24,000 nt of DNA from Gilvimarinus sp. 2_MG-2023 (GTDB lineage Bacteria > Pseudomonadota > Gammaproteobacteria > Pseudomonadales > Cellvibrionaceae), in the NCBI RefSeq assembly GCF_030547685.1, contig NZ_JAUOQM010000021.1:11445-35444 (forward strand), written 5' to 3'. How positions within the stretch are numbered: the first letter of the stretch is position 1; every line of letters begins with the position of its first letter. Below are positions 6,709 to 23,681 of the stretch, piece by piece. The notes beneath the pieces are model-generated. The model did not search any database and was not told the origin of the DNA. It saw nothing but the letters and a program-made list of their open reading frames with translations. The translations under genes and the position numbers were made by a program.

Positions 6709-6731
6709 CCCCGCAGGCTAAGCTTGCGGGG
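6709..6731. terminator. Hairpin between convergent cytochrome b562 and modC genes (CCCCGCA-N9-TGCGGGG)
   Basis: A 7-bp GC-rich stem read directly. The modC stop codon (6718-6720) lies in the loop. The flanking U-tracts are weak on both strands. Confidence 0.45.
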
Positions 6732-7695
6732 ATTTCACCGCATGAGCTTTAAATTGAGCAAACACCCCGAGCCCTGGGGTGAGGTCTAATGCTCGAACGG
6801 CCCGGTGAGTGATGAGCGAATACAGGCGCAGCTCGCCCCAGTGCAAAGTGAGCAGAGCGCTGGTTTTATCGAGCGCCGTTATTTTGCCTATCTCGACTTG
6901 CAGAGTATTGGCGATACTGGAGGGGCCCGGGTGCCGGCGAGCAATGGAAACCTCGTGGGCGTCAATGCTCACTCGGTTAATCGTTGTGGGCAATGGGCCT
7001 GTTTCGATTGCGTGGCCGGCTGCCATCCATTGCCTGCGGTCCTGGCACCACTGGACTGGCCAGAGCGCCGCTGCCTGGACCGGCGATTGCTCGGTGAGTT
7101 CGTGCTGGGCGCGGTTGATGTCGAGTGTTTGTCGGCTTTGCCATTGGTAGCAAAAATCGCAACTGGCGGCGAGATCGCGCCATTGGTGGCTGACGAGCAA
7201 AGCGCTGAGATTGCGCTGGTCGGCTGCCCGGCGCAGCGCCATTAATATTTCGCTGGCGGCCTGTTGATCCAACGCCGATACCGGCTCGTCCAGTATTAAC
7301 AGTTTGTCGGCACACAAGAGCGCCGCGAGCAGAGCGACGCGCTGGCGCTCCCCGCCCGATAGTATTGCGGTCGGTTTTTCCAGAAGCGGTAACACCTGAA
7401 ACTCGGCGGCAAGCGCTAACCAGTTTTCGCTTTTGTGGCGCTCGGCCAGTGCGCGCAGTTGTTGTTCCACTCGTTGATTGGGCCACAGCGGTGCTCCCTG
7501 CGCGGCCCAGCCGATGCCTCGCAAAGCCTGCGGGCGCTCTAGAAGATTGTTGTACTCCAGCTGAAGTTGGCCGCTCTGGCCCGACACGATTTGTTTCAGC
7601 AATTGAGTTTTACCACAACCGGAAGGACCGCTGATGCCCACCCAGGCGCCCCGGGGCCAGCGGATTTGATGCGCGCCGAGCTTAAGCTCCCACAT
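6718..7695 (-). CDS. modC: Molybdate ABC transporter ATP-binding protein ModC
   Basis: Walker A GPSGCGKT, signature LSGGERQRVALLAALL and Walker B LLILDEP. C-terminal TOBE/Mop-like domain (IANTLQVEIGKITALDKTSALLTLHWGELRLYSLITHRAVRALDL). I start it at ATG 7695 with SD GGGGAGG upstream. The longer ORF-track start at 7767 lies inside modB. Confidence 0.9.
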   Translation of the reverse strand: MWELKLGAHQIRWPRGAWVGISGPSGCGKTQLLKQIVSGQSGQLQLEYNNLLERPQALRGIGWAAQGAPLWPNQRVEQQLRALAERHKSENWLALAAEFQVLPLLEKPTAILSGGERQRVALLAALLCADKLLILDEPVSALDQQAASEILMALRRAADQRNLSALLVSHQWRDLAASCDFCYQWQSRQTLDINRAQHELTEQSPVQAAALWPVQWCQDRRQWMAAGHAIETGPLPTTINRVSIDAHEVSIARRHPGPSSIANTLQVEIGKITALDKTSALLTLHWGELRLYSLITHRAVRALDLTPGLGVFAQFKAHAVKSPQA

Positions 7696-8344
7696 GAAAG
7701 CCTCCCCGGCCTCGCTGCCAGCGATATAACATAAACAAAATAACCCAAGAAACAACCACCAACCCACCGGCTAAGCGGTGGGCGTTGGCATACTGCAGCG
7801 ACTCTACCTCGTCGTAGAGCAAAACTGATAACACTTGGGTTTCACCGGGAATATTGCCACCAATCATTAAGATTACGCCGAACTCGCCCACGGTATGAGC
7901 AAACCCCAGCGCGGCGGCGGCGACAAACGCATAGCCACAGCAGGGCAGGATAATGTGTCGGAAGACGGCAAAACGGTTAAGCCCCTGAGACTGCCCAAGT
8001 TGAATCAGTTGCGGGTCCAGCTGGCGAAAGCTTGCGGTTAAAGGCTGCGCCACAAACGGTAAAGAGTAAACACAAGAGCCGATGACCAGGCCGGTAAAGC
8101 TAAACGCCAAACCGCGGTCAAAAAACTGGCCGAATAAACCCTCGGGGCTTAATAACAGTAATAAATAAAAACCCATCACGGTCGGCGGCAATATCAGCGG
8201 CAGGGCAATGGCGGCCTCAACGCAGTTGCGCAGCCAGCCCGACTGCCCTCGGGCCAACCACCAGGCTAGGGGGGTGCACAAGAGCGTTAACGCCACCGTT
8301 GTGACGCCGGCGAGTTTAACGGTAATGATAATGGCGTCGATCAT
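7682..8344 (-). CDS. modB: Molybdate ABC transporter permease ModB
   Basis: 220 aa with 5-6 TM segments. Permease EAA-type loop QSQGLNRFAVFRHIILP. ATGA overlap with the modA stop (8341-8344), and it sits between modA and modC. Confidence 0.9.
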   Translation of the reverse strand: MIDAIIITVKLAGVTTVALTLLCTPLAWWLARGQSGWLRNCVEAAIALPLILPPTVMGFYLLLLLSPEGLFGQFFDRGLAFSFTGLVIGSCVYSLPFVAQPLTASFRQLDPQLIQLGQSQGLNRFAVFRHIILPCCGYAFVAAAALGFAHTVGEFGVILMIGGNIPGETQVLSVLLYDEVESLQYANAHRLAGGLVVVSWVILFMLYRWQRGRGGFHVGA

Positions 8345-9054
8345 GGCTGGGCCGCTTTGCTAGGCGGCGATGTATAGCCATTGTTACGGATAATCGTCTG
8401 CGCCGGTTCGCTCAGTAAAAACTGCATAAAGGCCTGGGTTGTATCGGAGGTGCTCAGCAACACGCCGGCTTGTGGCAGTGACGGGCTAGCATCGATGGGG
8501 TGCCAGTGCAGTTGAGGGGCAATATGGGCAAAGCTGGCGGCTACCAGCCCACAGGTGACATTGCCAGTTACAACAGTGTGTAGAGCACCGGCGACGGATG
8601 TTGACTGGACAGGCTGAGCTTGGATGGAGAATTGTTGCAACCACATTCGGGCGGCGCGACCATAAGGTGCGGTTTTGGTATTGGCAACGGCTAGACGGGG
8701 GCTGGTTTTAAGTGCCTCGGTGGCCGATGCAAAAGGTCGGTGGCATGCGAGCATCAACTGGCCCTCGGCATAAATAAAAGGCTCGGCAGTATCGAGCTTT
8801 TGAAATATACGCTGAGGGTAATCCATATCGGCAGAAAGAAAGACATCAAAAGGCGCGCCGGAGAGTATCTGCTGGGTAAAGACTCCGGAGGCGCCACCGG
8901 AAATAACCAGCGGATAAGGCGATTGCGACTGCCACAGTGGGCGCAGAGCCTCAAGGGTAGGCTTAAAGTTACTGGCTACCGCCACTTTTATACTGGTTGC
9001 GGCAAACGTGTTGGCGCTGGCCAGGATGAGATAGCTCAATAAAAAAAAGCGCAC
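8341..9054 (-). CDS. modA: Molybdate-binding periplasmic protein ModA
   Basis: ModA-like sequence (IKVAVASNFKPTLEAL..., VISGGASGVFTQQILSGAPFDVFLSAD, AVANTKTAPYGRAA). I start it at GTG 9054 because AAGGAG lies 5 nt upstream and the product then begins with a clean signal peptide, MRFFLLSYLILASANTFA. The ORF-track ATG at 9108 has no SD. Confidence 0.88.
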   Translation of the reverse strand: MRFFLLSYLILASANTFAATSIKVAVASNFKPTLEALRPLWQSQSPYPLVISGGASGVFTQQILSGAPFDVFLSADMDYPQRIFQKLDTAEPFIYAEGQLMLACHRPFASATEALKTSPRLAVANTKTAPYGRAARMWLQQFSIQAQPVQSTSVAGALHTVVTGNVTCGLVAASFAHIAPQLHWHPIDASPSLPQAGVLLSTSDTTQAFMQFLLSEPAQTIIRNNGYTSPPSKAAQP

Positions 9055-9138
9055 AATAGCTCCTTGGTTTGGGCGCGGGGTATTCGCCTGAAACAAGCTT
9101 GCTGTCAATCAGCGAGAACGCTATTGTGCCATAAATAC

Positions 9139-9154
9139 CGCGGCTTAGGCCGCG
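9139..9154 (-). terminator. Hairpin CGCGGC-TTAG-GCCGCG at the end of the nrtD-like gene, followed on the transcript by GUAUUUAU
   Basis: A perfect 6-bp GC stem read directly. The nrtD stop codon (9145-9147) lies in the loop. It separates the nrt and mod transcription units, and a TTGACA hexamer for modA follows (complement of 9104-9109). Confidence 0.5.
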
Positions 9155-9996
9155 TTATGATTGGTGCTTTTGGCCTTTGGCGGGGCGCTGCGCCGCGCGG
9201 TGAGCGGCTCAACCTTTTTTTGTTTTTCATACAAAAAGCGCAGTACCGAGCTGCGGTATTGGTTGTAGTGGGTGTCGTCCGCCAGAGCCAGTCGATCTCG
9301 GGGACGGGGCAAGTCGATATCAAGAATTTCACCAATGGTCGCTTCCGGGCCGTTTGTCATCATGACAATGCGGTCGGATAGCAGTACTGCCTCGTCTACA
9401 TCGTGGGTAATCATAATTACGGTGTTGCCCAGTTCTGCTTGTATATCCATTAGTGAGTCTTGCAGATGGGCGCGGGTTAACGCATCGAGCGCACCAAAAG
9501 GCTCGTCCATTAATAATACCTGAGGTTCCATAGCCAGAGCGCGGGCAATGCCCACACGCTGCTTCATGCCACCGGAGATTTCATCGGGTTTTTTATGCAT
9601 GGCATGGCTCATTTGCACCAACTCTAGGTTGTGTTCAATCCATTCACGCATTTCGGTCCGAGTTTTTTTTCGGCCGAATACGCGTTTAACCGCGAGCTCC
9701 ACATTTTGGTAGGCGGTGAGCCAGGGCAGTAGGGAATGATTTTGAAATACGACCGCTCGCTCAGGGCCGGGTTCATTCACTTCGCGACCGTTAAGTACCA
9801 CGCCGCCGGTAGTGGCTTGATATAACCCGGCAACAATGTTGAGTACAGTGGATTTGCCGCATCCGGAGTGGCCGATAAGCGAGACAAATTCACCTTCGCG
9901 AATTCTCAAGTCAACATTGTTAAGTGCACAAAAAGGCCCTTTGGGGGTGGGAAAGCTAATGCCAACCTGGCTGAGTTCTAAATGCGTATTGCTCAT
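9145..9996 (-). CDS. nrtD: ABC transporter ATP-binding protein, NrtD/CmpD (nitrate/sulfonate/bicarbonate) type
   Basis: Walker A GHSGCGKST, signature ISGGMKQRVGIARAL, Walker B LLMDEPFGALD and H-loop ITHDVDEA. I start it at ATG 9996 with SD GAGGAG upstream. Confidence 0.85.
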   Translation of the reverse strand: MSNTHLELSQVGISFPTPKGPFCALNNVDLRIREGEFVSLIGHSGCGKSTVLNIVAGLYQATTGGVVLNGREVNEPGPERAVVFQNHSLLPWLTAYQNVELAVKRVFGRKKTRTEMREWIEHNLELVQMSHAMHKKPDEISGGMKQRVGIARALAMEPQVLLMDEPFGALDALTRAHLQDSLMDIQAELGNTVIMITHDVDEAVLLSDRIVMMTNGPEATIGEILDIDLPRPRDRLALADDTHYNQYRSSVLRFLYEKQKKVEPLTARRSAPPKAKSTNHNAA

Positions 9997-10024
9997 AATT
10001 TTCTCCTCATCATTCGGTGATCTG

Positions 10025-11011
10025 TTAGCGCACAACGGCTGTTTTGTCCCAATTGACCCAGCTTTGAATAAATAGCAAGGCGCGATCTAGCAGAAATCCG
10101 ATAAAGCCGATCATCAATACCGCCACACAAATGCGGCCCAGTGAGTTGGATGAACCGTTTTGGAACTCGTCCCAAACAAATTTTCCGAGCCCTGGGTTTT
10201 GTGCCAACATTTCCGCGGCAATTAAAACCATCCAGGCGATACCCAGTGATAGGCGAAGGCCGGTAAACATCATAGGAATGGAGGAGGGCAACACGATGGT
10301 TTTGATGTGTGTTAACCACCCCAATCGCAAAACCCGACTAACGTTTTGTAAATCCTGATTAATACTGGCAACACCCACGGCGGTATTGATCATTGTGGGC
10401 CATAAGCAGCACAGGGTGACCGTGACAACCGAGGTAATAAACGATTTGGCCAGCACAGGGTCTTCTGAAACGTAAACCGCACTCACCACCATGGTAACCA
10501 AAGGCAGCCACGCCAATGGCGAAACTGGCTTGAAGATCTGAATGATCGGGTTAAGCGCCCGATAAACCGTATTACTTAAGCCGATAAAGATACCCAGCGG
10601 AATCGCAATCATCGTGGCCAGAAAAAAACCGGTCATTACGGTAATTAAGCTGGTAACAATTTGGTCAAAGAATGTAGGGCGGCGGTTAAAGTCACGCCAA
10701 CGAACCTCAGCACTTGGATTCTGTTCCAACTTTTTGGCATTGCGTTGTTCTTGCCTTTCGTAAAAGGCCGCTTCGCGCTCATTCTCACTGATGTGTTCGG
10801 TGCGTAAGTTTTGCCATTGCTCATGAACCTCGGCAGGTCCTGGGAATTGCCCTAACGATGTATCCACTTGTTTGGCACCGATATGCCAGACGCCGATAAA
10901 CAGCACTAGCCCGATCATGGGCGTTAATACGGCCTTAGCTAAGGCTTGCCACTGCTCCGGGCCAAAGCTCGCTCGTTGCCACTTTTGTTTGATCAATATA
11001 GAGGGGTTCAT
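10025..11011 (-). CDS. nrtB: ABC transporter permease, NrtB/CmpB type
   Basis: Polytopic permease with a long charged periplasmic or cytoplasmic insert after TM1 (EVHEQWQNLRTEHISENEREAAFYERQEQRNAKKLEQ), as seen in NrtB-type permeases. I start it at ATG 11011 with SD GAGGA. Confidence 0.82.
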   Translation of the reverse strand: MNPSILIKQKWQRASFGPEQWQALAKAVLTPMIGLVLFIGVWHIGAKQVDTSLGQFPGPAEVHEQWQNLRTEHISENEREAAFYERQEQRNAKKLEQNPSAEVRWRDFNRRPTFFDQIVTSLITVMTGFFLATMIAIPLGIFIGLSNTVYRALNPIIQIFKPVSPLAWLPLVTMVVSAVYVSEDPVLAKSFITSVVTVTLCCLWPTMINTAVGVASINQDLQNVSRVLRLGWLTHIKTIVLPSSIPMMFTGLRLSLGIAWMVLIAAEMLAQNPGLGKFVWDEFQNGSSNSLGRICVAVLMIGFIGFLLDRALLFIQSWVNWDKTAVVR

Positions 11012-11034
11012 GCTTATTTCCTCGTAGATAAAAC

Positions 11035-11053
11035 GGCGCCACAGGGTGGCGCC
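11035..11053 (-). terminator. Intercistronic hairpin GGCGCC-N7-GGCGCC followed by GUUUUAU, between nrtA and nrtB (candidate partial terminator or stabiliser)
   Basis: Read directly. It lies in the 76-nt nrtA-nrtB spacer, just upstream of the nrtB SD. Confidence 0.45.
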
Positions 11054-11087
11054 ATGCTCAAAGCGTAAATTGAGCGTCAATAAAAAA

Positions 11088-12494
11088 TTAAAGAGAGTCG
11101 GTCGCTTTTAAACCGATGTCGAGCGCTTCCAGGTACTCGGTGGGTTTGCTGCCGTCGTAGGTAATGCCGTCGATAAAGTCTGGCTGTGGACCTTTAAAAC
11201 CGGTCTCGCTCGCAAAGTCCGGGAATTGCTCCGCACTGATTTCGCCCTCTTTAATGAGCGACTGAGCGGCTTGTTGATAAAGGTCAGGGCGATAGACTTT
11301 TTGGGCGGTGTCGAAGTACCAGTTGTCGTCTTTATGCTCGGCAATTTGACCCCAGCGACGCATTTGGGTGAGATACCAAATCGCATCAGAGTAATAAGGG
11401 TAGGTGGCGTTGTAGCGGAAGAATACATTGAAATCGGGCACGGAGCGTTTATCGCCTTTTTCGTATTCAAAAGTACCGGTCATAGAATTGGCAATTACTT
11501 CCGCATCTGCCCCGACATAGTAAGGTTTAGACAGAATTTTTACCGCCTCTGGACGGTTGGCGTTGTTGTTCTCATCCAGCCACTTGGCCGCACGGATTAA
11601 CGCTTTGGTCAGCCTGATTGTGGTGTTGGGGTATTTCTCGGCAAAGTCAGCGGTAATGCCAAATACTTTTTCCGGATTGTTTTTCCAGATCTCATAGTCG
11701 GTGATAACCGGAACGCCAATACCTTTAAAAACAGCTTGCTGGTTCCACGGCTCGCCCACGCAATAGCCGTAAATAGTTCCGGCTTCCATGGTGGAAGGCA
11801 TCTGTGGTGGAGGTGTCACACTGAGCAAGGCATCCGCTTGTAATTGACCAGAAGTATCCCCTTTGTGTGGGGCGTAAAACCCAGGATGAATACCGCCGGC
11901 CGCTAACCAGTAGCGCAATTCATAATTGTGAGTGGATACGGGAAAAACCATTCCCAAATTAAACGACTTGCCCTCCTGTTGGTATTTTTCTACCACCGGC
12001 TTTAGCGCATCGGCCTTAATTGGGTGGACGGGTTTGCCGTCAGCTTGTTTGGGGATATGTGGTTTCATCTGCTCCCATATGGTATTGGAAACGGTTATGC
12101 CGTTGCCGTTTAAATCCATTGAGAAGGGGGTAATGATATGAGCTTTGGTGCCATAGCCAATGGTTGCCGCTAAGGGTTGTCCCGCCAGCATATGGGCGCC
12201 GTCAAGCTCGCCAGTGATGACTCGATCCAACAACACTTTCCAGTTTGCTTGCGCTTCCAGTTCAACAAAAAGCCCTTCGTCCTCAAAGTATCCGTTCTCT
12301 AACGCGATTGCTAATGGCGCCATATCGGTCAGTTTAATAAAGCCGAACTTAAGGTCTTCCTTTTCTGGCTCTCCCAGTGCCATGGCATGCACAGAGGCAG
12401 ATAAAACTGCGACGCTAAGAATGATGTTTTTCAAAGGTGTAAGCCAGTGCCCTATGCTTTTTAAATATGTCTTTTTTACCAGTCGATTTTCCAT
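11088..12494 (-). CDS. nrtA: NrtA/CmpA family periplasmic substrate-binding protein (nitrate/nitrite-type; exact ligand not determinable)
   Basis: [62 protein letters not shown] matches the NrtA/CmpA N-lobe signature. About 468 aa with a signal peptide. I start it at ATG 12494 with SD AGGAG 7 nt upstream. Confidence 0.85.
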
Positions 12495-12658
12495 CGTTAA
12501 TCTCCTAATTCCCAAGGGTGTTTAATTTAATTCGTTACTAGCACGGCAACGGTAGCGCTTAATGCTCCGTTACTTTTTAAGTTGTTTGTATCGGCCTCGC
12601 GCTAAAGAATTTGTCGTTTATTTTGAAAAACGTTTCATCAAAGTTCAGGTCGATAGTT

Positions 12659-17140: not shown

Positions 17141-18061
17141 TTATGCTGCGCTGGTTCGCATCCGCTCCAAATAGCCGCGCACTTTGCCCATAAGGCTGCG
17201 GTTCGTACTCGGTTCAGGGGTCGGATCGGTGTTGGCCTCGACTTTATGGCGACGCAACAAGGCAGGCTTGTCTTGCAGGGATTGACGGTGTTTGAGCGCT
17301 GAGCTGATGCTGTCGTACAGCATACGGCGCGATAAAGGCATAGGCAGTACCCGAAACACCTGGGCGCGGTTAATCAGCTTAATAAGATGGTTGGTGTCGG
17401 AAAAGGCGGTCACCACCAGAACAACTAGCTCGGGGCGGCGCTGTTTCATTAGAGCCAAGGCTTCGGAAATGTCCCCTTCGGGTAAAATGAGATCAGTCAG
17501 TAAGATCGCTTTGGGGTGTTTAATCAATAGCTCCATCGCATCGTTGACAGTGGTGGCGTAACCGACTCGATACTCGGGCTTCTCCTTGGCAATAAGCTGG
17601 GCCATGGCTTTTTTGCTGTGCAGCACCACAATGTCGCCGGCATTCGGTTTGGCTTTTGCGGGCTCAGCAATGGCCTGTTTTGTTTCCCGGGCGATGGCCA
17701 CGGCTTCGTCCAGGGTTTTGCGCAATTCGATCAGGTGCCAGGGTTTTTGTATGTAGCGGAAGATTTCGCCATCGTTAATAGAGCCGACGATGCTGGCAAG
17801 CTCGGCGTAGCCTGTAAGCAGAATGCGAACTGTGCCGGGGGATATATCCCGTGCACCGCGCAATACTTCTACTCCGGTCATCATTGGCATGCGCTGGTCC
17901 GAGATGATGACATCGACCGCGTGGTTTTTTAATAGCTCCAATGCGTCGCGGCCGTCGCTTGAGGTAAGCACGTTATAGTCGCGTCGAAAGGCCATCTCCA
18001 TCGTCCTTAAAATACGACTTTCGTCGTCGACAAACAATAAGGTGGGCTTAGCTGCCGTCAT
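17141..18061 (-). CDS. Response regulator: canonical REC domain plus a second, degenerate receiver-like domain, with no recognisable output domain
   Basis: REC1 has LLFVDDE, the phospho-acceptor context VIISDQRMPMMTG, LLTGY and IQKPW. Domain 2 (IVVLHSKK..LLTDLILPEG..VVTAF..FRVLPMP) lacks the acidic pair and the conserved Lys. ATGA overlap with the kinase stop (18058-18061). Confidence 0.85.
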   Translation of the reverse strand: MTAAKPTLLFVDDESRILRTMEMAFRRDYNVLTSSDGRDALELLKNHAVDVIISDQRMPMMTGVEVLRGARDISPGTVRILLTGYAELASIVGSINDGEIFRYIQKPWHLIELRKTLDEAVAIARETKQAIAEPAKAKPNAGDIVVLHSKKAMAQLIAKEKPEYRVGYATTVNDAMELLIKHPKAILLTDLILPEGDISEALALMKQRRPELVVLVVTAFSDTNHLIKLINRAQVFRVLPMPLSRRMLYDSISSALKHRQSLQDKPALLRRHKVEANTDPTPEPSTNRSLMGKVRGYLERMRTSAA

Positions 18062-19377
18062 ATTGGCTCCTCCGTGGATTGCGAGCTTTGCGTTTTAGGT
18101 AAGCGGATGACAAATTCAGTGCCTTTGCCCTCAACCGAGCGCACATTGATGACGCCCTTGTGCTGTTGAATGATCTGGTAGGAAATCGACAACCCCAGAC
18201 CAGTGCCTTCCCCCACTTTTTTGGTGGTAAAAAAGGGATCAAAAATCTTTTTGCGCACGGCCTCTGGCATGCCGCGCCCATTGTCGAGAATATGAATATC
18301 GACGCAGTCATTGCGCACGCGTGTTTTAACTTTAATTTTGCCCCAGTTGTCGATGGCCTGGGCGGCGTTGGTAAGAATGTTGAGCAGAACCTGATTGATT
18401 TGCGAGGATACGCACTCGATCACAGTGCCGTCTTGGTAGTCTTTTATCACCTGCGCTTTTTGTTTAATGATATTGCGGCCAATATTTAGAGCGCTATCGA
18501 TGCAGTCATTGAGATCGACCTCTGACATTTTAATATGATCAATGCGGGCAAAGTTTTTCAGGTTGCCCACCAGCTCCCCGATTTGATCCAGTCCGTGCAG
18601 GCTGTCGGCTACCAGTGTGCGCAAATCCTCAATCATACCTTGATCAACCGTCTCGTTGATGCTTGCGGCGTTGACGCTAATGGCCTGAGTGATGGTCTCG
18701 TCGTTTGGCTCATCGGCGAGAAGGGCGGCTACCAGCGCTTGGTTGCTTTGGGTCAATTGCTCAATGTGTTCTTGCAAGCTTGCCGCCAGTTCTACATTGG
18801 ATTGCACATAACCCAGTGGCGTATTTATCTCGTGCGCAACGCCGGCGACCATCTGACCGAGCGAGGCCATTTTTTCCGATTGAATCAAATGAGCTTGCGA
18901 CGATTTAAGACGATGGTTGGCCGTTTGTAGGGCGCGGTTGCGTATCTCGGCGCGCTTTTCAAGCAGCTCCAACAGCGACAGAACCATTCCCATGCCGTAG
19001 TACTGGTTTTCGCCGGTGATGATCACAAAGTCTTCGGTGATAGGGTTGTCGATGTGGGCGTGAACATAGCGGCTGGCCTCTTCGATATCGGTATTGATGT
19101 CAATGAGCAGCGGCTCTTTGTTCATAAAGTCACCCACCGGCCGGGAGCCGTAAATTTCGCGTCCGTAGGACTGCAAAAATATCCGCATAATCGCATAGCG
19201 GGAAATGGTGCCGGCTACCTGACCCGCAGTGACCACGGGCAGACACAGCAGTGCCCGATAATCTTCCGACAAAAACAGGTCGGCAACATCTTTAATGCGT
19301 GTTTGCGGGGTTAGCGGCTCAACGGATACGGCTAGGTCGCGAACCCGTTGGTAGGAGACGGCAATGTTCATTTTCAA
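18058..19377 (-). CDS. Cytoplasmic sensor histidine kinase with an N-terminal CBS-pair domain (CBS-HisKA-HATPase_c)
   Basis: No TM segment. N-terminal CBS-like region (IKDVADLF...[17 protein letters not shown]; [25 protein letters not shown]). H-box [16 protein letters not shown] box [11 protein letters not shown]1 ILDNGRGMP and G2 [21 protein letters not shown] upstream of ATG 19377. Confidence 0.88.
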
Positions 19378-19646: not shown

Positions 19647-19661
19647 TGGCACGCAAAATGC
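19647..19661 (+). promoter_or_regulatory. Sigma-54 promoter upstream of amt (TGGCAC-GCAAA-ATGC)
   Basis: Read directly. GG-N10-GC spacing is exact and the -24 hexamer TGGCAC is perfect. It lies about 80 nt upstream of the amt ATG, consistent with NtrC/sigma-54 control known for amt genes. Confidence 0.7.
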
Positions 19662-19685
19662 GTTAAAGCGAGAGCAAAACCATAA

Positions 19686-19739
19686 TTGCACCATCGTATA
19701 ACACACGGTGGTACAACCGGCGTCAAAAAACCAAGCCGG
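19686..19739 (+). promoter_or_regulatory. Two potential stem-loops in the amt 5' leader
   Basis: Stem-loop 1 is TTGCACCATCGT-N7-ACGGTGGTACAA (19686-19716), with 11 of 12 positions pairing including one G-U. Stem-loop 2 is CCGGC-N13-GCCGG (19717-19739) and ends 2 nt before ATG 19742. Confidence 0.35.
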
Positions 19740-19741
19740 CC

Positions 19742-21085
19742 ATGAGAAAAACTAAGAGAATGCCCATGAAGAATGTACTGTCCCCACTGCTCAGCGCTGT
19801 GTTGCTGCTGTGTGTTTGTCCTGCGCTGGCGGCTGACTCGGTCGCCTCGCAAACCTCCGTTGATACTGTCTGGATTATTGTTGCTGCCGCTCTCGTATTT
19901 TTTATGCAAGCGGGTTTTGCCTTGCTTGAAAGTGGTATGTCGCGCGCCAAAAATACAGTTAATGTCATAATGAAAAACTACGCAGATGTCTGTGTAGGTT
20001 CGTTGGTGTTTTGTCTGGTTGGGTTTGGCCTGATGTTTGGTGCTAACCCAACAGGTTTTTGGGGGACCGACCACTTCTTGTTAAACCCTGACTTGGAGTG
20101 GGACTGGTCGGTCGTATTGTTTCAGGCCATGTTTGCCGCCACAGCTGCAACCATAGCCAGCGGTACTATGGCTGAGCGAACCCGGTTTAATGCTTACTTA
20201 GTAGCCGCCTGTGTGGTGATGGGATTTCTCTATCCGGTATTTGGCAGTTGGGCGTGGGGCAGTGCTTTTGAGGGAACCGGCTGGCTGGCCGAGCTCGGCT
20301 TTATCGACTTTGCCGGGTCAACGGTTGTGCATTCGCTAGGTGCCTGGGTGGCGCTCGCCGGGGCTTTAGTGGTGGGGCCGCGAATCGGTCGCTTTGACAG
20401 CGAAGGGCGTGTGCACCGAATTCCGGGCCATAACTTAAGCTATGTGGCCATGGGCGGCTTTATTCTCTGGTTTGGTTGGTTTGGCTTTAATGGGGGGAGT
20501 ACTTTAGGGGCGGATGTTTCTATTGGCCTAATTAATCTAAATACTCATTTGGCCGCCTGTGCCGGGGCCGCCGGGGCGCTATTAGCTTGTGCGCTGGGGC
20601 GTAAACCCATATTGGTGGAGCAGGTGGTAAACGGCTCGATAGGTGGCTTGGTCAGTATCACTGCCGGTTGCGCCACTATGGACCCATTGTTTGCGGTTGT
20701 GACCGGGTTGATAGCAGGCTTAGTGGTGGTGTATGGATCTCGTTTATTGTTAAAAATGCGAGTTGACGATGTGGTGGGGGCGATCCCTGTGCATGGTTTT
20801 GCCGGTGCCTGGGGCACCATTGCCGCCGGTTTGTTTTATGCCGAAGATATGCTTTCAATAGAGTTAGTGATTGTACAGTGCATAGGAGTACTGACCTGCT
20901 TCTTGTGGGCCTTTGTAGGATCTTTAATTATCTACGGATTGGTTAATTGGGTGATGCCGCTGCGGGCCGAGCCTTTGCATGAGCAGCGCGGCTTAGATAT
21001 TACTGAGCATGCTGAGCTGGGGTATCCTGAGTTTACTAAAGGCAACGCTTATAACGAGAAAACACTGGAGGTGCTCGAACGATGA
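19742..21085 (+). CDS. amt: Ammonium transporter (Amt/AmtB family)
   Basis: Typical Amt motifs: VFFMQAGFALLESG, FAATAATIASGTMAERTRF, DFAGSTVVHSLGAWVALAGALVVGPR, FGWFGFNGGS and IPVHGFAGAWGTIAAGLF. It has a signal peptide. The start could also be ATG 19760 or 19766. Confidence 0.93.
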   Translation: MRKTKRMPMKNVLSPLLSAVLLLCVCPALAADSVASQTSVDTVWIIVAAALVFFMQAGFALLESGMSRAKNTVNVIMKNYADVCVGSLVFCLVGFGLMFGANPTGFWGTDHFLLNPDLEWDWSVVLFQAMFAATAATIASGTMAERTRFNAYLVAACVVMGFLYPVFGSWAWGSAFEGTGWLAELGFIDFAGSTVVHSLGAWVALAGALVVGPRIGRFDSEGRVHRIPGHNLSYVAMGGFILWFGWFGFNGGSTLGADVSIGLINLNTHLAACAGAAGALLACALGRKPILVEQVVNGSIGGLVSITAGCATMDPLFAVVTGLIAGLVVVYGSRLLLKMRVDDVVGAIPVHGFAGAWGTIAAGLFYAEDMLSIELVIVQCIGVLTCFLWAFVGSLIIYGLVNWVMPLRAEPLHEQRGLDITEHAELGYPEFTKGNAYNEKTLEVLER

Positions 21086-21750
21086 GTGCCACCCCAGTGC
21101 AAATACAAAAGCGGCGCATTGTTTACACGGCTTTGTCTGACTTTTTGCAGGGCGAAGAACTGGCTAAAGCGTTTCAGTTGTGGGAGCAACAGTACGCTGA
21201 TAAGCCGGTTTTTGCCCTGAATGAGTATGTGGGTAAGTTATCGATGTTGGCTAGCAATTTGGGCCCGCGCAAAGAAGTCATCCGCGCCTTATTAAACCTC
21301 AGCCAAGATCCGAGCTCACAGACACTTTTGCCAGACCCCGCACCCTCAATCGGTGTGATGAAAGATTTGTCGGTTCGCGAAAGTGCCCCACGCGAGTATC
21401 CCGAGCGGTTAGATAAAGTGTTTGAGCATTTTTTAGTGGCGCTAGAAACGGTTATGCCCAGTAATATTTTTTTGCAATTTCGGTTAAATTTTTTGGTTCG
21501 TTTGGCCGACATGCCGTTAAACCCCGCCTTGAAAACACGCCTGCGGAGTTGGTTTGATAGCGATGGTGCGAGCAAGTCGTTTTCGGTGGTATGCGCCTCG
21601 CCTGAAATTCGGCGCGTGGTGAATCAGCTCTATGTGGTGATGTGTGAGTTGTTCGGCCCGGTACAGGCAGATGATATGTTGGAGCGCAGTGTCGAGTGGC
21701 TCGAGCGCTACCACCCCAATTGTGTGCGAGATATTCGGCGTTTCTTATAG
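21082..21750 (+). CDS. Hypothetical soluble protein, 222 aa, translationally coupled to amt (no family recognised)
   Basis: Its ATG overlaps the amt TGA as ATGA (21082-21085). No signal peptide and no TM segment. Leu/Glu/Arg-rich and apparently helical. No catalytic or nucleotide-binding motif that I can recognise. Confidence 0.65.
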   Translation: MSATPVQIQKRRIVYTALSDFLQGEELAKAFQLWEQQYADKPVFALNEYVGKLSMLASNLGPRKEVIRALLNLSQDPSSQTLLPDPAPSIGVMKDLSVRESAPREYPERLDKVFEHFLVALETVMPSNIFLQFRLNFLVRLADMPLNPALKTRLRSWFDSDGASKSFSVVCASPEIRRVVNQLYVVMCELFGPVQADDMLERSVEWLERYHPNCVRDIRRFL

Positions 21751-21756
21751 CTTGTG

Positions 21757-21788
21757 CTGGCGTTCATTGTTGCAACAGTTAACGCCGG
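21757..21788. terminator. Long imperfect hairpin between convergent orf222 and dxs (CTGGCGTT...GTTGCAAC...AACGCCGG)
   Basis: Read directly. The outer stem is 8 bp including one G-U, and the inner palindrome is GTTGCAAC. There is no strong U-tract. Confidence 0.4.
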
Positions 21789-21797
21789 TGAGCTAAC

Positions 21798-23681
21798 TCA
21801 AAGGCCCCCTAAGTGGCGCCAGCCAAGTTGATCGAGTCTTTGGTTGATGGCACTTTTTATGCCTTGTGCGTCCAGTCCCTGGCTGGCTAATTGGTCGGCT
21901 TGGCTGGCGTGGCCGACAAACTCATCGGCCAAGCCGAGTTGTAACACCGATGTCGTGTTTTGCTGGCTGTGCAAATATTCGGTGACTGCGGAGCCCGCTC
22001 CACCGGCGATGGCGTTCTCCTCCAGTGTTACCAGTAGGTTATGGTCGCGGGCTAGCTGATCGATCAATTCAGTATCAAGCGGTTTCACAAAACGCATATC
22101 GCACAGGGTTAAGCCCAGCTCGGCGGCGACTTTTTGCGCGCAAGTGGCCAAGGTGCCAAAACATAGTAGCGCGGCGCTGGTGCCCTGTCGCTTGATAATG
22201 CCCTTGCCAATTGGCAGGGCGTTCATGGCTTGTTCAATTGCAGTGCCGGCACCGCGCCCTCGGGGGTAGCGCACCGCGCTTGGCCCCTGGTGCTGGAAGC
22301 AGGTGTACAGCAGTTGTCGGCACTCGTTTTCGTCCGAAGGCGTGGCGAGTACCATATTGGGAATGCAGCGTAAAAAAGAGATATCAAAACTGCCGGCGTG
22401 GGTGGCGCCGTCTTCACCGACCAAGCCCGCTCGGTCAATGGCAAAGGTGACATCTAACTGTTGCAGGGCAACGTCGTGAATTAATTGGTCGTAAGCACGC
22501 TGTAAGAAAGTAGAGTAAATTGCCACTACCGGCTTTTGGCCTTCACAGGCTAAGCCTGCCGCTAGGGTTACCGCATGCTGCTCTGCAATAGCGACATCGT
22601 AGAAGCGTTCTGCGTATTGCTCGGCAAACTCCACCATGCCGGAGCCTTCACACATGGCCGGGGTGATGCCCACCAAGCGCGGTTCCACCGCCGCCATATC
22701 GCACAGCCACTGGCCAAATACAGCTTGAAACTTGGGCCGGTTGGGGACGGGTTTTTTCGGTGCGGGTTCGAGCTTGTTGAGTGCATGGTAGCCGACCGGG
22801 TCTAGCTCGGCGGGCTCGAAACCTTTGCCTTTTTGGGTGATAAGGTGCAACAGCTTTGGGCCTTTGACACTGCGCAGATTGCGTAAATAGCGCACAAGAG
22901 ATGGCAGGTCGTGACCGTCGATGGGGCCGATGTAATTAAACCCCAGCTCTTCGAATAAAGTGCCCGGTGAGACAAACCCTTTAAAGTGCTCCTCGGTGCG
23001 CCGGGCAAACTCCCACGCCGATGGAATTTTGGTGAGCACTTGCTTGCTACCCTCGCGCAGAGAGTTGTAAAACTTACTGCCCCAAATCTTAGATAAATAC
23101 GTGGCCAAACCGCCGACATTGGGCGAGATCGACATATTGTTGTCATTGAGAATGACCAGTAGGTCAGCATCGGTGTGGGCGGCGTGGTTGAGCGCCTCAA
23201 AGGCCATGCCGGCGGTCATGGCGCCATCGCCGATTATCGCAGCACATTTGCGCTCTCCCCCAGCCAGCGCCATACCTAAGGCCGCACTGATAGAGGTGCT
23301 GGAGTGGCCCACCCCAAAGGTGTCGTATTCGCTCTCTTCGCGCTTGGGAAAGCCGGATAGGCCGCCCTCTTGGCGCATGGTGAGCAACTGCTCACGGCGG
23401 CCGGTGAGGATTTTATGGGGATAGGTTTGGTGGCCCACATCCCACACGAGGCGGTCTTCGGGGGTGTTGTAAATGTAATGCAGAGCAATGGTCAGCTCGA
23501 CCACGCCGAGGCCAGCTCCAAAATGCCCGCCGGTTTGCCCGACGCTGTACAAAAGAAAGGCGCGCAACTCTTCTGCCAGTTTGGGCAGCTCTTTTTCGGT
23601 GAGCTCACGCAAATCAGCGGGGGAGTCGATGCGGTCAAGCAACGGTGTTGCCGGGCGCGTTTGAGGTATTTCGTTCAGCAT
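21798..23681 (-). CDS. dxs: 1-deoxy-D-xylulose-5-phosphate synthase
   Basis: 627 aa. N-terminus [64 protein letters not shown] and the ThDP motif [17 protein letters not shown]...NDN. It lies downstream of ispA, as in many proteobacteria. Confidence 0.97.

Follow-up and report, generated by a model that had tools for sequence, protein, structure and literature searches.

An undescribed family of predicted soluble proteins encoded directly behind amt genes in Gammaproteobacteria and Betaproteobacteria

The pairing of glnK with amtB, in which the PII protein plugs the channel, is the textbook model for the control of ammonium entry into prokaryotic cells. In the stretch of Gilvimarinus DNA analyzed here (24 kb, hereafter the window), an amt gene is followed by a 222-codon gene whose product the preliminary description could assign to no family and regarded as standing in place of GlnK. 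This raises the question of what kind of protein this is, how firmly it is tied to the Amt, and what it might do there.

An amt gene and its overlapping neighbor

The amt gene lies at positions 19742 to 21085 of the forward strand and encodes 447 amino acids counted from the first ATG; the NCBI product has 439 amino acids, which is compatible with a start at M9 (position 19766). The protein, an ammonium transporter or receptor-like protein by family, matches PF00909 over its full length (377.7 bits, E=7e-113, profile positions 1 to 399 of 399) and exceeds the TIGR00836 cutoff (394.9 versus 343.3 bits). The second open reading frame (21082 to 21750, forward strand; 222 amino acids), here called the partner gene, begins within the end of amt. 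As the preliminary description had stated, the two share an ATGA (21082 to 21085), made up of the partner ATG (21082 to 21084) and the amt TGA (21083 to 21085), an overlap expected to couple their translation and found unchanged in all five other Gilvimarinus loci that were read. A Shine-Dalgarno sequence, GGAGG, is placed inside the amt 3' end (21067 to 21071, forward strand), 10 nt upstream of the partner ATG, and is kept as GGAGG or GAGG at the other Gilvimarinus junctions.

A sigma-54 type promoter is predicted at 19647 to 19662 on the forward strand, roughly 80 to 95 nt upstream of the amt start, with a -24 GG (19648 to 19649) and a -12 GC (19660 to 19661) at the correct spacing. Its core, TGGCACGCAAAATGC (19647 to 19661), is an exact match to TGGCACN6TGC, and 78 of 90 related loci have a motif of this type ahead of amt, where 0.08 per region would be expected. 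[quoted passage not shown] DH-1, a statement that cannot be mapped to the partnered paralogue. At the other end, a strong hairpin (21748 to 21795, forward strand; -23.9 kcal/mol, z = -4.26, with none of 200 shuffles folding equally well) begins at the partner stop codon, in the interval that separates the partner from the convergent dxs gene, and is a candidate for the operon end. It has no T-run and was not called by a scan for T-run terminators; an Rfam search of the region returned no relevant match. The two genes appear to form an autonomous operon under a sigma-54 promoter, and the overlap, the GGAGG, and the promoter motif all support the earlier proposal that they are co-translated from a sigma-54 transcript.

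A widespread protein family kept directly behind amt

Gilvimarinus sp. 1_MG-2023 has a "hypothetical protein" with 100% identity to the partner protein, and the eight Gilvimarinus orthologues are 62 to 100% identical, with 103 invariant columns. A word-index search returned only these eight Gilvimarinus proteins, as if the gene were a genus-restricted orphan; an exhaustive profile search overturned that reading, giving 397 clusters at E<=1e-3, of which 176 reach E<=1e-10, with lengths of about 200 to 260 amino acids throughout. Conservation at the protein level thus extends from 100% to about 21% identity over hundreds of clusters with invariant motifs, and this refutes the idea of a spurious open reading frame or annotation artefact, which the lone database label of "hypothetical protein" might have invited. 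With a Shine-Dalgarno sequence of its own and a confident AlphaFold2 (AF2) model (pLDDT 83.7) as well, the partner is a real, conserved gene, and we give an artefact practically no credence.

The protein is predicted to be soluble and all alpha. It lacks hydrophobic segments (the highest Kyte-Doolittle mean over 19 residues is 1.25; pI 6.75), in agreement with the earlier statement that it lacks a transmembrane segment, and the AF2 model consists of ten helices and no strands. Four of these make up an N-terminal domain (amino acids 1 to 78, positions 21082 to 21315, forward strand; pLDDT 75 to 92), in which column conservation picks out RR-x-V-Y-T, W34-E35, Y38, P42, F49, and R63. A linker follows (amino acids 79 to 108, 21316 to 21405), opening with a conserved LLPDP in which L82 is kept in 45, D85 in 44, and P86 in 45 of the 50 sequences of alignment A2. 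Beyond LLPDP it is predicted to be disordered (pLDDT below 50 for residues 90 to 107) and varies in length and sequence. The remaining six helices form the C-terminal domain (amino acids 109 to 222, 21406 to 21747; pLDDT 91 to 97 over most of the domain), which carries the family signature N181-x2-Y184-[VI]-x2-C188-E-x2-G192-P193-V-x-A-D197-x2-L200 (nucleotides 21622 to 21681). G192, P193, and D197 are invariant across 50 diverse family members.

No described family was found to which this protein could be assigned, which is in line with the failure of the preliminary description to recognize a motif. Searches against Pfam and NCBIfam returned nothing at E<=1, there was no match in PHROGs, PADLOC, or PDB sequences, and a plasmid collection held no homologue. 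The best Foldseek hits to the predicted fold were not significant (E of 0.77 against PDB and 0.27 against BFVD). The arrangement of two helical domains and a linker recalls an extracytoplasmic function (ECF) sigma factor, a candidate that was rejected, since hhalign of the family profile against E. coli RpoE gave a probability of 0.1% and no Sigma70 Pfam match was obtained. By its sequence relationships, the partner belongs to a widespread, unnamed family absent from Pfam and NCBIfam. It has no recognizable output, ligand-binding, or enzymatic domain, which counts against a dedicated role beside the Amt.

The indication of such a role comes from synteny. Loci were gathered with a hand-designed degenerate DNA pattern, so that the sample is biased toward members having YV..CE..GPV.AD, and counts of that motif are circular because the pattern selected for it; P0057 of Sulfuriferula was not placed on a contig. 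In all 116 loci with upstream DNA available, from about 30 genera of Gammaproteobacteria and Betaproteobacteria, an amt gene lies directly 5' of the partner gene on the same strand. The 4-nt ATGA overlap recurs in 40 of these pairs, and most other gaps range from -19 to +18 nt. The reverse test gave the same answer, as all four Amts picked by Amt similarity alone were accompanied by a partner. Conservation of the neighborhood across genera, which the preliminary description had put forward as a check, is therefore strongly supported, and the linkage is obligate within the loci compared. The partnered Amts form a clade found in Alcanivorax, the Pseudomonas oleovorans/mendocina group, Methylophilaceae, Sphaerotilus, Methylomonas, Gilvimarinus, and other genera, and the partner family was never seen apart from it. 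Pairwise identities of Amt and partner are correlated (r = 0.86, 82 pairs).

Everything around the pair is variable, and no third gene is conserved. One proposal of the preliminary description, a connection to the divergently encoded CBS-kinase module, is not supported by this comparison: the pair has the CBS-histidine kinase and response regulator at its side in just two loci, the window and Gilvimarinus algae (locus L006), where the sole relative of the window kinase was found, and neither occurs in three other Gilvimarinus loci or in any other genus. Signaling genes more generally were considered as a conserved output and set aside as too few, with GGDEF/EAL genes at 3 and CBS genes at 5 of 49 upstream neighbors. 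That no conserved neighbor points to a downstream target counts against a dedicated partnership, as does the much faster evolution of the partner (median identity of 27%, versus 60% for Amt).

These features bear on an alternative in which the partner acts during nitrogen starvation in a separate cytoplasmic task and stays behind amt for co-regulation alone. Operons do contain co-regulated genes whose products do not interact, the rapid divergence of the partner would suit such a protein, and its polar invariant residues could make up an active site. Set against this are the strict immediate linkage (116 of 116) across two proteobacterial classes while all other surroundings change, the frequent start/stop overlaps, and the confinement of the family to a single Amt clade. 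Adjacency conserved so tightly usually points to proteins with a joint function, and we consider mere co-regulation rather unlikely.

The class of the Amt and the place of GlnK

The partnered Amt appears to belong to a receptor-like class, a point that the first reading of the window had missed. Its closest solved structures are Ks-Amt5, an Amt-histidine kinase (6eu6, 312 bits), and Sd-Amt1, an Amt-HAMP-GGDEF protein (8qj3, 289 bits), with lower scores against the transporters Af-Amt1 (184 bits) and E. coli AmtB (139 bits). An alignment with the sequences of 8qj3 and 6eu6, interpreted in the light of Pfluger et al. 2024 (PMC11152129), places Q56, F59, E63, K78, N79, D82, T137, and S140 at the N1/N2 ammonium site (codons within 19907 to 20161, forward strand), with Y152 and the exit-funnel N297 encoded further 3'. 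Q56, E63, N79, D82, T137, S140, and N297 correspond to Q22, E29, N45, D48, T104, S107, and N269 of Sd-Amt1, and the likeness to the two receptors extends to F59, K78, and Y152. Of 90 partnered Amts, 79 have the N1/N2 ligand set, which E. coli AmtB lacks. The partner always sits directly behind this one sensor-like class and so probably represents a new type of Amt partner.

Several observations count against the receptor-like reading. The strict N1/N2 signature, QX6EX15NX2D[F/T]X54-60TX2[S/T], is matched by none of the 90 partnered Amts; the window protein departs from it at V83, where F or T is called for, and in its spacer of 53 rather than 54 to 60 residues. In a Sphaerotilus/Leptothrix subgroup, the partner is kept though the Asn and Asp ligands are missing from the Amt. 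The cytoplasmic C-terminal region of the Amt, HEQRGLDITEHAELGYPEF (20978 to 21034, forward strand), conserved in about 100 partnered Amts and followed by a variable 16-residue tail, is of the canonical transporter type. A YPEF ending was tried as a marker of the clade and discarded, as a PII-linked Methylomonas Amt has it too. Sigma-54 induction, for its part, would be expected of a scavenging transporter and also suggests caution about a receptor. So does the breadth of the class: in the available text of PMC11152129, Amts carrying the N1/N2 site account for 29.6% of all Amts and include true transporters, for example plant AMT1. Among single-domain Amts that have the site, the same text allows for receptors or dual receptor/transporters.

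The window Amt is of this single-domain kind. PF00909 is its sole domain, it carries no fused transducer and ends at residue 447, and the best 120 homologues are likewise all single-domain proteins of 414 to 498 amino acids. It thus resembles the single-domain "cluster 2" Amts, such as plant AMT1, in having one Amt domain and the N1/N2 ligand set; it differs in that a specific partner family is attached, whereas the available text of PMC11152129 describes no operon partner for the bacterial members. The difference from Ks-Amt5 and Sd-Amt1 is that the protein stops 16 residues past the canonical C-terminal region, and that a separate, coupled protein with no similarity to kinase, HAMP, or GGDEF domains takes the place of the fused one.

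No glnK lies near the pair, as has also been reported for Ks-amt5. A phmmer search with E. coli GlnK of all window open reading frames of at least 50 amino acids found no PII protein, in keeping with the earlier statement that the window contains no glnK, and the same query found no PII gene beside a partnered amt in any of 130 loci, where the one hit was an unrelated gene. Nor is the partner itself a PII protein, again as first described: it has no PF00543 match (nothing in Pfam at E<=1), and it is a two-domain, all-helical protein of 222 amino acids without the alpha/beta ferredoxin-like fold and T-loop of a PII protein of about 112. The notion that it stands in place of GlnK is correct for the operon but is not supported for the genome. 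On one Methylomonas contig, a canonical PII-amt pair adjoins an amt-partner pair, the PII-linked Amt lacking the N1/N2 ligand set and the partnered Amt having it. The two systems therefore coexist, and the partner is the mark of an additional Amt system that runs in parallel, not of one that replaces a lost GlnK.

A functional analogue of GlnK would be a different matter. Here the Amt would be a high-affinity transporter, and the partner, itself sensing some metabolite, would gate or inhibit it at the cytoplasmic exit once nitrogen is sufficient. The operon logic is that of amtB-glnK: nitrogen (sigma-54) control, an amt gene sharing its transcript with the gene for a small cytoplasmic protein, and a pairing kept across many genera. 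Translational coupling suggests matched amounts of the two proteins, the Amt has all canonical pore residues along with its transporter-type C-terminal region, and the polar invariant residues N181, Y184, C188, E189, and D197 of the partner C-terminal domain would suit a small-ligand site. However, the partner is unlike PII in sequence, length, and fold and has no known ligand-binding domain; the partner gene follows amt, the opposite of the glnK-amtB order; and PII coexists with the pair in at least one genome, so that the need for a second plug is not evident. The Amt also belongs to another clade, scoring 171 bits against a cutoff of 657 for the AmtB equivalog (NF007947), and resembles non-transporting receptors more than GlnK-regulated transporters. 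We regard such an analogue as possible but on the unlikely side. A literature search found no described non-PII Amt partner of the 222-amino-acid kind. The nearest parallel is from Methanosarcina mazei, in which, according to the available text of PMC10714827, a small protein mediates inhibition of ammonium transport; this is another non-PII accessory tied to Amt regulation, likened here by description, and differs as an archaeal small protein of less than 70 amino acids from the bacterial two-domain partner.

A proposed cytoplasmic partner for a receptor-like Amt

With the operon, the synteny, and the Amt class in hand, we consider it probable that the partner binds its Amt in some role. One such role would be in biogenesis or stability, with the partner aiding folding, trimer assembly, or protection of the Amt. 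Strict co-occurrence and coupled translation would fit a factor of this sort. Yet Amts, including the related Ks-Amt5 and Sd-Amt1, have been made heterologously and their structures solved (Pfluger et al. 2018 and 2024; PMC5764959, PMC11152129), and known membrane-protein chaperones bear no likeness to an all-helical protein of the cytoplasm that has a disordered linker. This role strikes us as improbable.

The reading that we favor, though tentatively and at less than even confidence, takes the synteny to mean that the partner is dedicated to a receptor-like Amt, which it serves from the cytoplasm. Translational coupling would set a fixed proportion of partner to Amt, and the partner would dock at the cytoplasmic face of the Amt trimer. 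There it may sense the occupancy of the internal N1/N2 ammonium site and hand that state to cytoplasmic targets, and it would then be the detached counterpart of the histidine kinase and HAMP-diguanylate cyclase modules fused in Ks-Amt5 and Sd-Amt1. To our knowledge, a fused signaling domain is the only other characterized route by which an Amt passes on information. That the partner relays the ligand state of the Amt onward, in this direction and to a downstream target, is a conjecture that we hold with equal reserve. Still more doubtful is the full form of the proposal, a "split" ammonium receptor in which a receptor-type Amt would sense external ammonium at N1/N2 and a separately encoded protein of new fold would carry the signal inward. 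If true, it would amount to PII-independent ammonium sensing, widespread in Gammaproteobacteria and Betaproteobacteria and parallel to GlnK-AmtB.

In any of these cases, a large Amt clade that has neither GlnK in its operon nor a fused signaling domain carries, invariably attached, a protein of unknown fold from a family new to Pfam and NCBIfam. Pfluger et al. 2024 left the role of single-domain N1/N2 Amts open, and the pairing offers a concrete, genetically tractable handle on it in culturable organisms. If the partner does neither regulate nor relay, a very tightly conserved operon is still to be explained; if it does one or the other, it would be a new component of bacterial nitrogen sensing.

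The probable amt-partner transcription unit

The ammonium transporter gene amt (19742-21085, + strand) is followed directly by an ORF of 222 codons (21082-21750, +), whose product we call the partner. The amt stop and the partner start share ATGA (21082-21085, +), and ORF listing and direct reading bore out both this overlap and the gene boundaries of the preliminary description. Direct reading also placed a GGAGG within the 3' end of amt, 10 nt before the partner ATG (21067-21071, +), and motif matching placed a sigma-54 type -24/-12 element, TGGCACGCAAAATGC, at 19647-19661 (+). A hairpin runs from the partner stop codon into the space before the convergent dxs (21748-21795; -23.9 kcal/mol, z = -4.3). 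It was equaled in stability by 0 of 200 shuffles, carries no T-run, and may act as a bidirectional terminator. Given the ATGA overlap, the internal GGAGG, the sigma-54 element, and the terminal hairpin, amt and the partner gene look like one bicistronic unit.

The sigma-54 transcript proposed earlier is not peculiar to this genome. TGGC[AC]-N7-TGC occurred in the approximately 350 nt before amt at 78 of 90 loci, against an expectation of 0.08 per region, so the module as a whole, and not only its copy in the window, has kept such a transcript. From these sequences, NtrC dependence of the operon is plausible. The NtrC regulon reported for Methylomonas DH-1 includes an "amt", which may or may not be the partnered paralogue (PMC12799797). 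Within dxs, the antisense strand carries a second exact match to TGGCACN6TGC (21848-21862); 0.46 matches are expected by chance in the window, and this one is probably fortuitous.

Matching PF00909 at E=7e-113, amt encodes an Amt of full length; the protein exceeds the TIGR00836 cutoff and scores far under that of the AmtB equivalog. The NCBI product of 439 aa is consistent with a start at M9 (19766) rather than at the first ATG (19742), and the N-terminus resembles a signal peptide with either start. The predicted amt leader of 74 nt has a folding energy of -21.4 kcal/mol (z = -3.1) and contains, 3' of the -12 element, a hairpin (CACCAUCG-loop-CGGUGGUG, 19690-19712) that had no match in Rfam. 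CACC...GGTG hairpins of a similar kind are present in the amt leaders of two other Gilvimarinus loci, L006 (G. algae) and L007.

The partner family and its linkage to amt

Gilvimarinus sp. 1_MG-2023 encodes a "hypothetical protein" identical to the partner. The partner has a pI of 6.75 and no hydrophobic segment, in line with the lack of a transmembrane segment in the preliminary description. The profile search proposed there returned no match in Pfam or NCBIfam, and PHROGs, PADLOC, and PDB sequences likewise gave none. A word-index search recovered only eight Gilvimarinus orthologues (62 to 100% identical). When a profile of these eight was run exhaustively with HMMER against 1.84 billion cluster representatives, the family grew to 397 clusters at E<=1e-3 and 176 at E<=1e-10. 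Nearly all of the best 150 of the 397 are 193 to 263 aa long, and most matched over almost their full length. Fifty diverse members are 21 to 55% identical to the window protein and contain no Pfam domain; G192, P193, and D197 are invariant among them, and L18, W34, F49, L82, P86, W157, Y184, C188, L200, and L222 are nearly so. Wherever a source names members, they are "hypothetical" or "uncharacterized" proteins. Judged by its sequence relatives, the 222-aa ORF is a genuine gene of a large unnamed family.

An AlphaFold2 model of the partner built with a 42-sequence alignment (mean pLDDT 83.7, pTM 0.52) predicts an N-domain of four helices (about residues 5 to 75) and a C-domain of six (110 to 221; pLDDT >90 over most of it). 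The linker between them (about 79 to 108) starts with a conserved LLPDP and is otherwise disordered and variable. The C-domain holds the motif N-x2-Y-[VI]-x2-C-E-x2-G-P-V-x-A-D.

A degenerate DNA pattern for this motif, scanned against one genome per GTDB species, yielded at least 120 loci, with a family member in 119 of the 120 listed. Among the matches listed, partners occurred in Alcanivorax, Alloalcanivorax, Ketobacter, Zhongshania, Spongiibacter, Thalassolituus, Bacterioplanes, Bacterioplanoides, Saccharophagus, Pseudomonas, Ectopseudomonas, Aquipseudomonas, and Moraxellaceae; in Thioalkalivibrio, Alkalilimnicola, Marinicella, Stagnimonas, Sinimarinibacterium, and Methylomonas; and in Methylotenera, Methylophilus, Methylobacillus, Sphaerotilus, Leptothrix, and Pseudaquabacterium. 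The pair was also seen on contigs binned as Planctomycetota (two MAGs, L040 and L060) or Chloroflexota (the Ca. Intricatilinea MAG L086), which could reflect horizontal transfer or mis-binning.

The preliminary description asked whether homologues sit immediately 3' of amt across genera. Among the matches listed, amt was immediately 5' of the partner on the same strand in 116 of 116 pairs with upstream DNA, and the 15 partner hits lacking a 5' amt were all truncated by a locus or contig end. The overlapping stop and start was also frequent: 40 of these 116 pairs have a gap of -4 nt, and most gaps fall within -19 to +18 nt. In a Moraxellaceae MAG and a JGI metagenome, partners with about 25% identity likewise occupy the position directly 3' of amt. 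In the reverse direction, four Amts (Thiohalophilus, Kaarinaea, and two metagenomes) were selected solely by 60 to 65% identity with the window Amt and by their place on long contigs; each is followed by a partner (E 1e-40 to 3e-70). The linkage is obligate. Across 82 pairs, amt and partner identities correlate (r = 0.86), with medians of 60% for Amt and 27% for the much faster evolving partner.

No third gene shares this conservation. No other neighbor cluster was present at more than 19 of 124 loci, and in a Pfam census of immediate neighbors at 74 non-redundant loci nothing exceeded 10%. In four other Gilvimarinus loci read whole (L001, L004, L006, and L007), amt, ATGA, and partner stand in that order with differing flanks. 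A GH20 hexosaminidase gene lies 3' of the pair in all four and a DUF805 gene 5' of amt in L001, L004, and L006; both are missing from the window, so the surroundings have been rearranged locally while the two genes stayed together.

Divergent from amt in the window are genes for a soluble CBS-pair histidine kinase (439 aa) and a response regulator (306 aa; receiver-type matches, recognizable output domain absent), overlapping by 4 nt (17141-19377, -). Of the loci read, just two, the window and the G. algae locus, have them beside the pair. An association confined to two Gilvimarinus loci gives no support to the earlier proposal that the partner links ammonium flux to this kinase. Upstream of amt (6718-12515, -), in a region abundant in nitrogen-assimilation functions, lie a nitrate/bicarbonate-type ABC system (NMT1_2 binding protein, 11088-12515; permease, 10025-11080; ATPase, 9145-10035) and a ModABC-like (molybdate) system (8341-9108, 7682-8344, and 6718-7767, the last with a TOBE domain).

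The partnered Amt

By sequence, the closest solved relatives of the window Amt are Ks-Amt5 (6eu6, 312 bits) and Sd-Amt1 (8qj3, 289 bits), against 184 and 139 bits for two transporters, Af-Amt1 and E. coli AmtB. According to their reports, Ks-Amt5 and Sd-Amt1 are ammonium receptors whose Amt module has an extra internal ammonium site, N1/N2, and drives a fused histidine kinase or HAMP-diguanylate cyclase (PMC5764959, PMC11152129). In a residue alignment with Sd-Amt1, window Amt residues Q56, F59, E63, K78, N79, D82, T137, S140, Y152, and N297 correspond to Q22, F25, E29, K44, N45, D48, T104, S107, Y119, and N269. The published N1/N2 regular expression found no literal match in the window Amt, which has V83 for F/T and a 53-residue spacer. 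Of 90 partnered Amts, 79 have the ligand set, which E. coli AmtB lacks. On these grounds the window Amt is receptor-like, with some reservations. A Sphaerotilus/Leptothrix subgroup keeps the partner with an Amt lacking the Asn and Asp ligands. The C-terminal region of the window Amt, HEQRGLDxxEHxExGYPEF, is canonical, and unlike Ks-Amt5 and Sd-Amt1 this Amt has no fused module.

The Sd-Amt1 report gives a further reason for caution: 29.6% of the family have the N1/N2 site, plant AMT1 and other true transporters among them, and for this reason single-domain members are called possible receptors or dual receptor/transporters (PMC11152129). In the Ectopseudomonas group, the gene divergent from amt encodes a membrane GGDEF-EAL protein (L043, 1418-3478), and in Alcanivorax a response regulator-GGDEF protein is encoded near amt (L042, 1210-2298). 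Such neighbors are suggestive beside the GGDEF fusion of Sd-Amt1 and are lineage-specific (3 of 49 non-redundant upstream neighbors).

Function of the partner

The preliminary description placed the partner "in place of GlnK". The window indeed holds no PII gene; the idea of replacement fits poorly with a Methylomonas MAG contig (L058, 837-8000), where glnA, a porin gene, a canonical PII-amt pair (PII gene first), and a convergent amt-partner pair lie within 8 kb. There the partner-linked Amt has the N1/N2 ligand set and the PII-linked Amt lacks it. Judged by this contig, the partnered Amt belongs to a separate system running beside the PII-linked one and is not a remnant of glnK loss.

The two genes are strictly and immediately adjacent over two proteobacterial classes, often overlap at stop and start, co-diverge, and have no other conserved neighbor, and the family does not occur apart from this Amt clade. 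The best explanation of these five observations is that partner and Amt probably act jointly; the simplest form of this would be a complex at the Amt cytoplasmic face. A co-regulated protein with an independent cytoplasmic function would fit the shared transcript and seems rather unlikely beside these observations; a role in Amt biogenesis appears improbable. Because the Amt is receptor-like and coexists with a canonical PII-Amt pair, we tentatively favor a relay or adaptor, which would be a separately encoded version of the transducers that Ks-Amt5 and Sd-Amt1 carry as fusions. Almost as likely, if still doubtful, is a GlnK-like inhibitor of a scavenging transporter.

Databases and literature yielded no name, domain, structure, or paper for the partner family or for its pairing with amt. 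The family is without known relatives, and the pairing is a further form of "Amt plus dedicated cytoplasmic partner".
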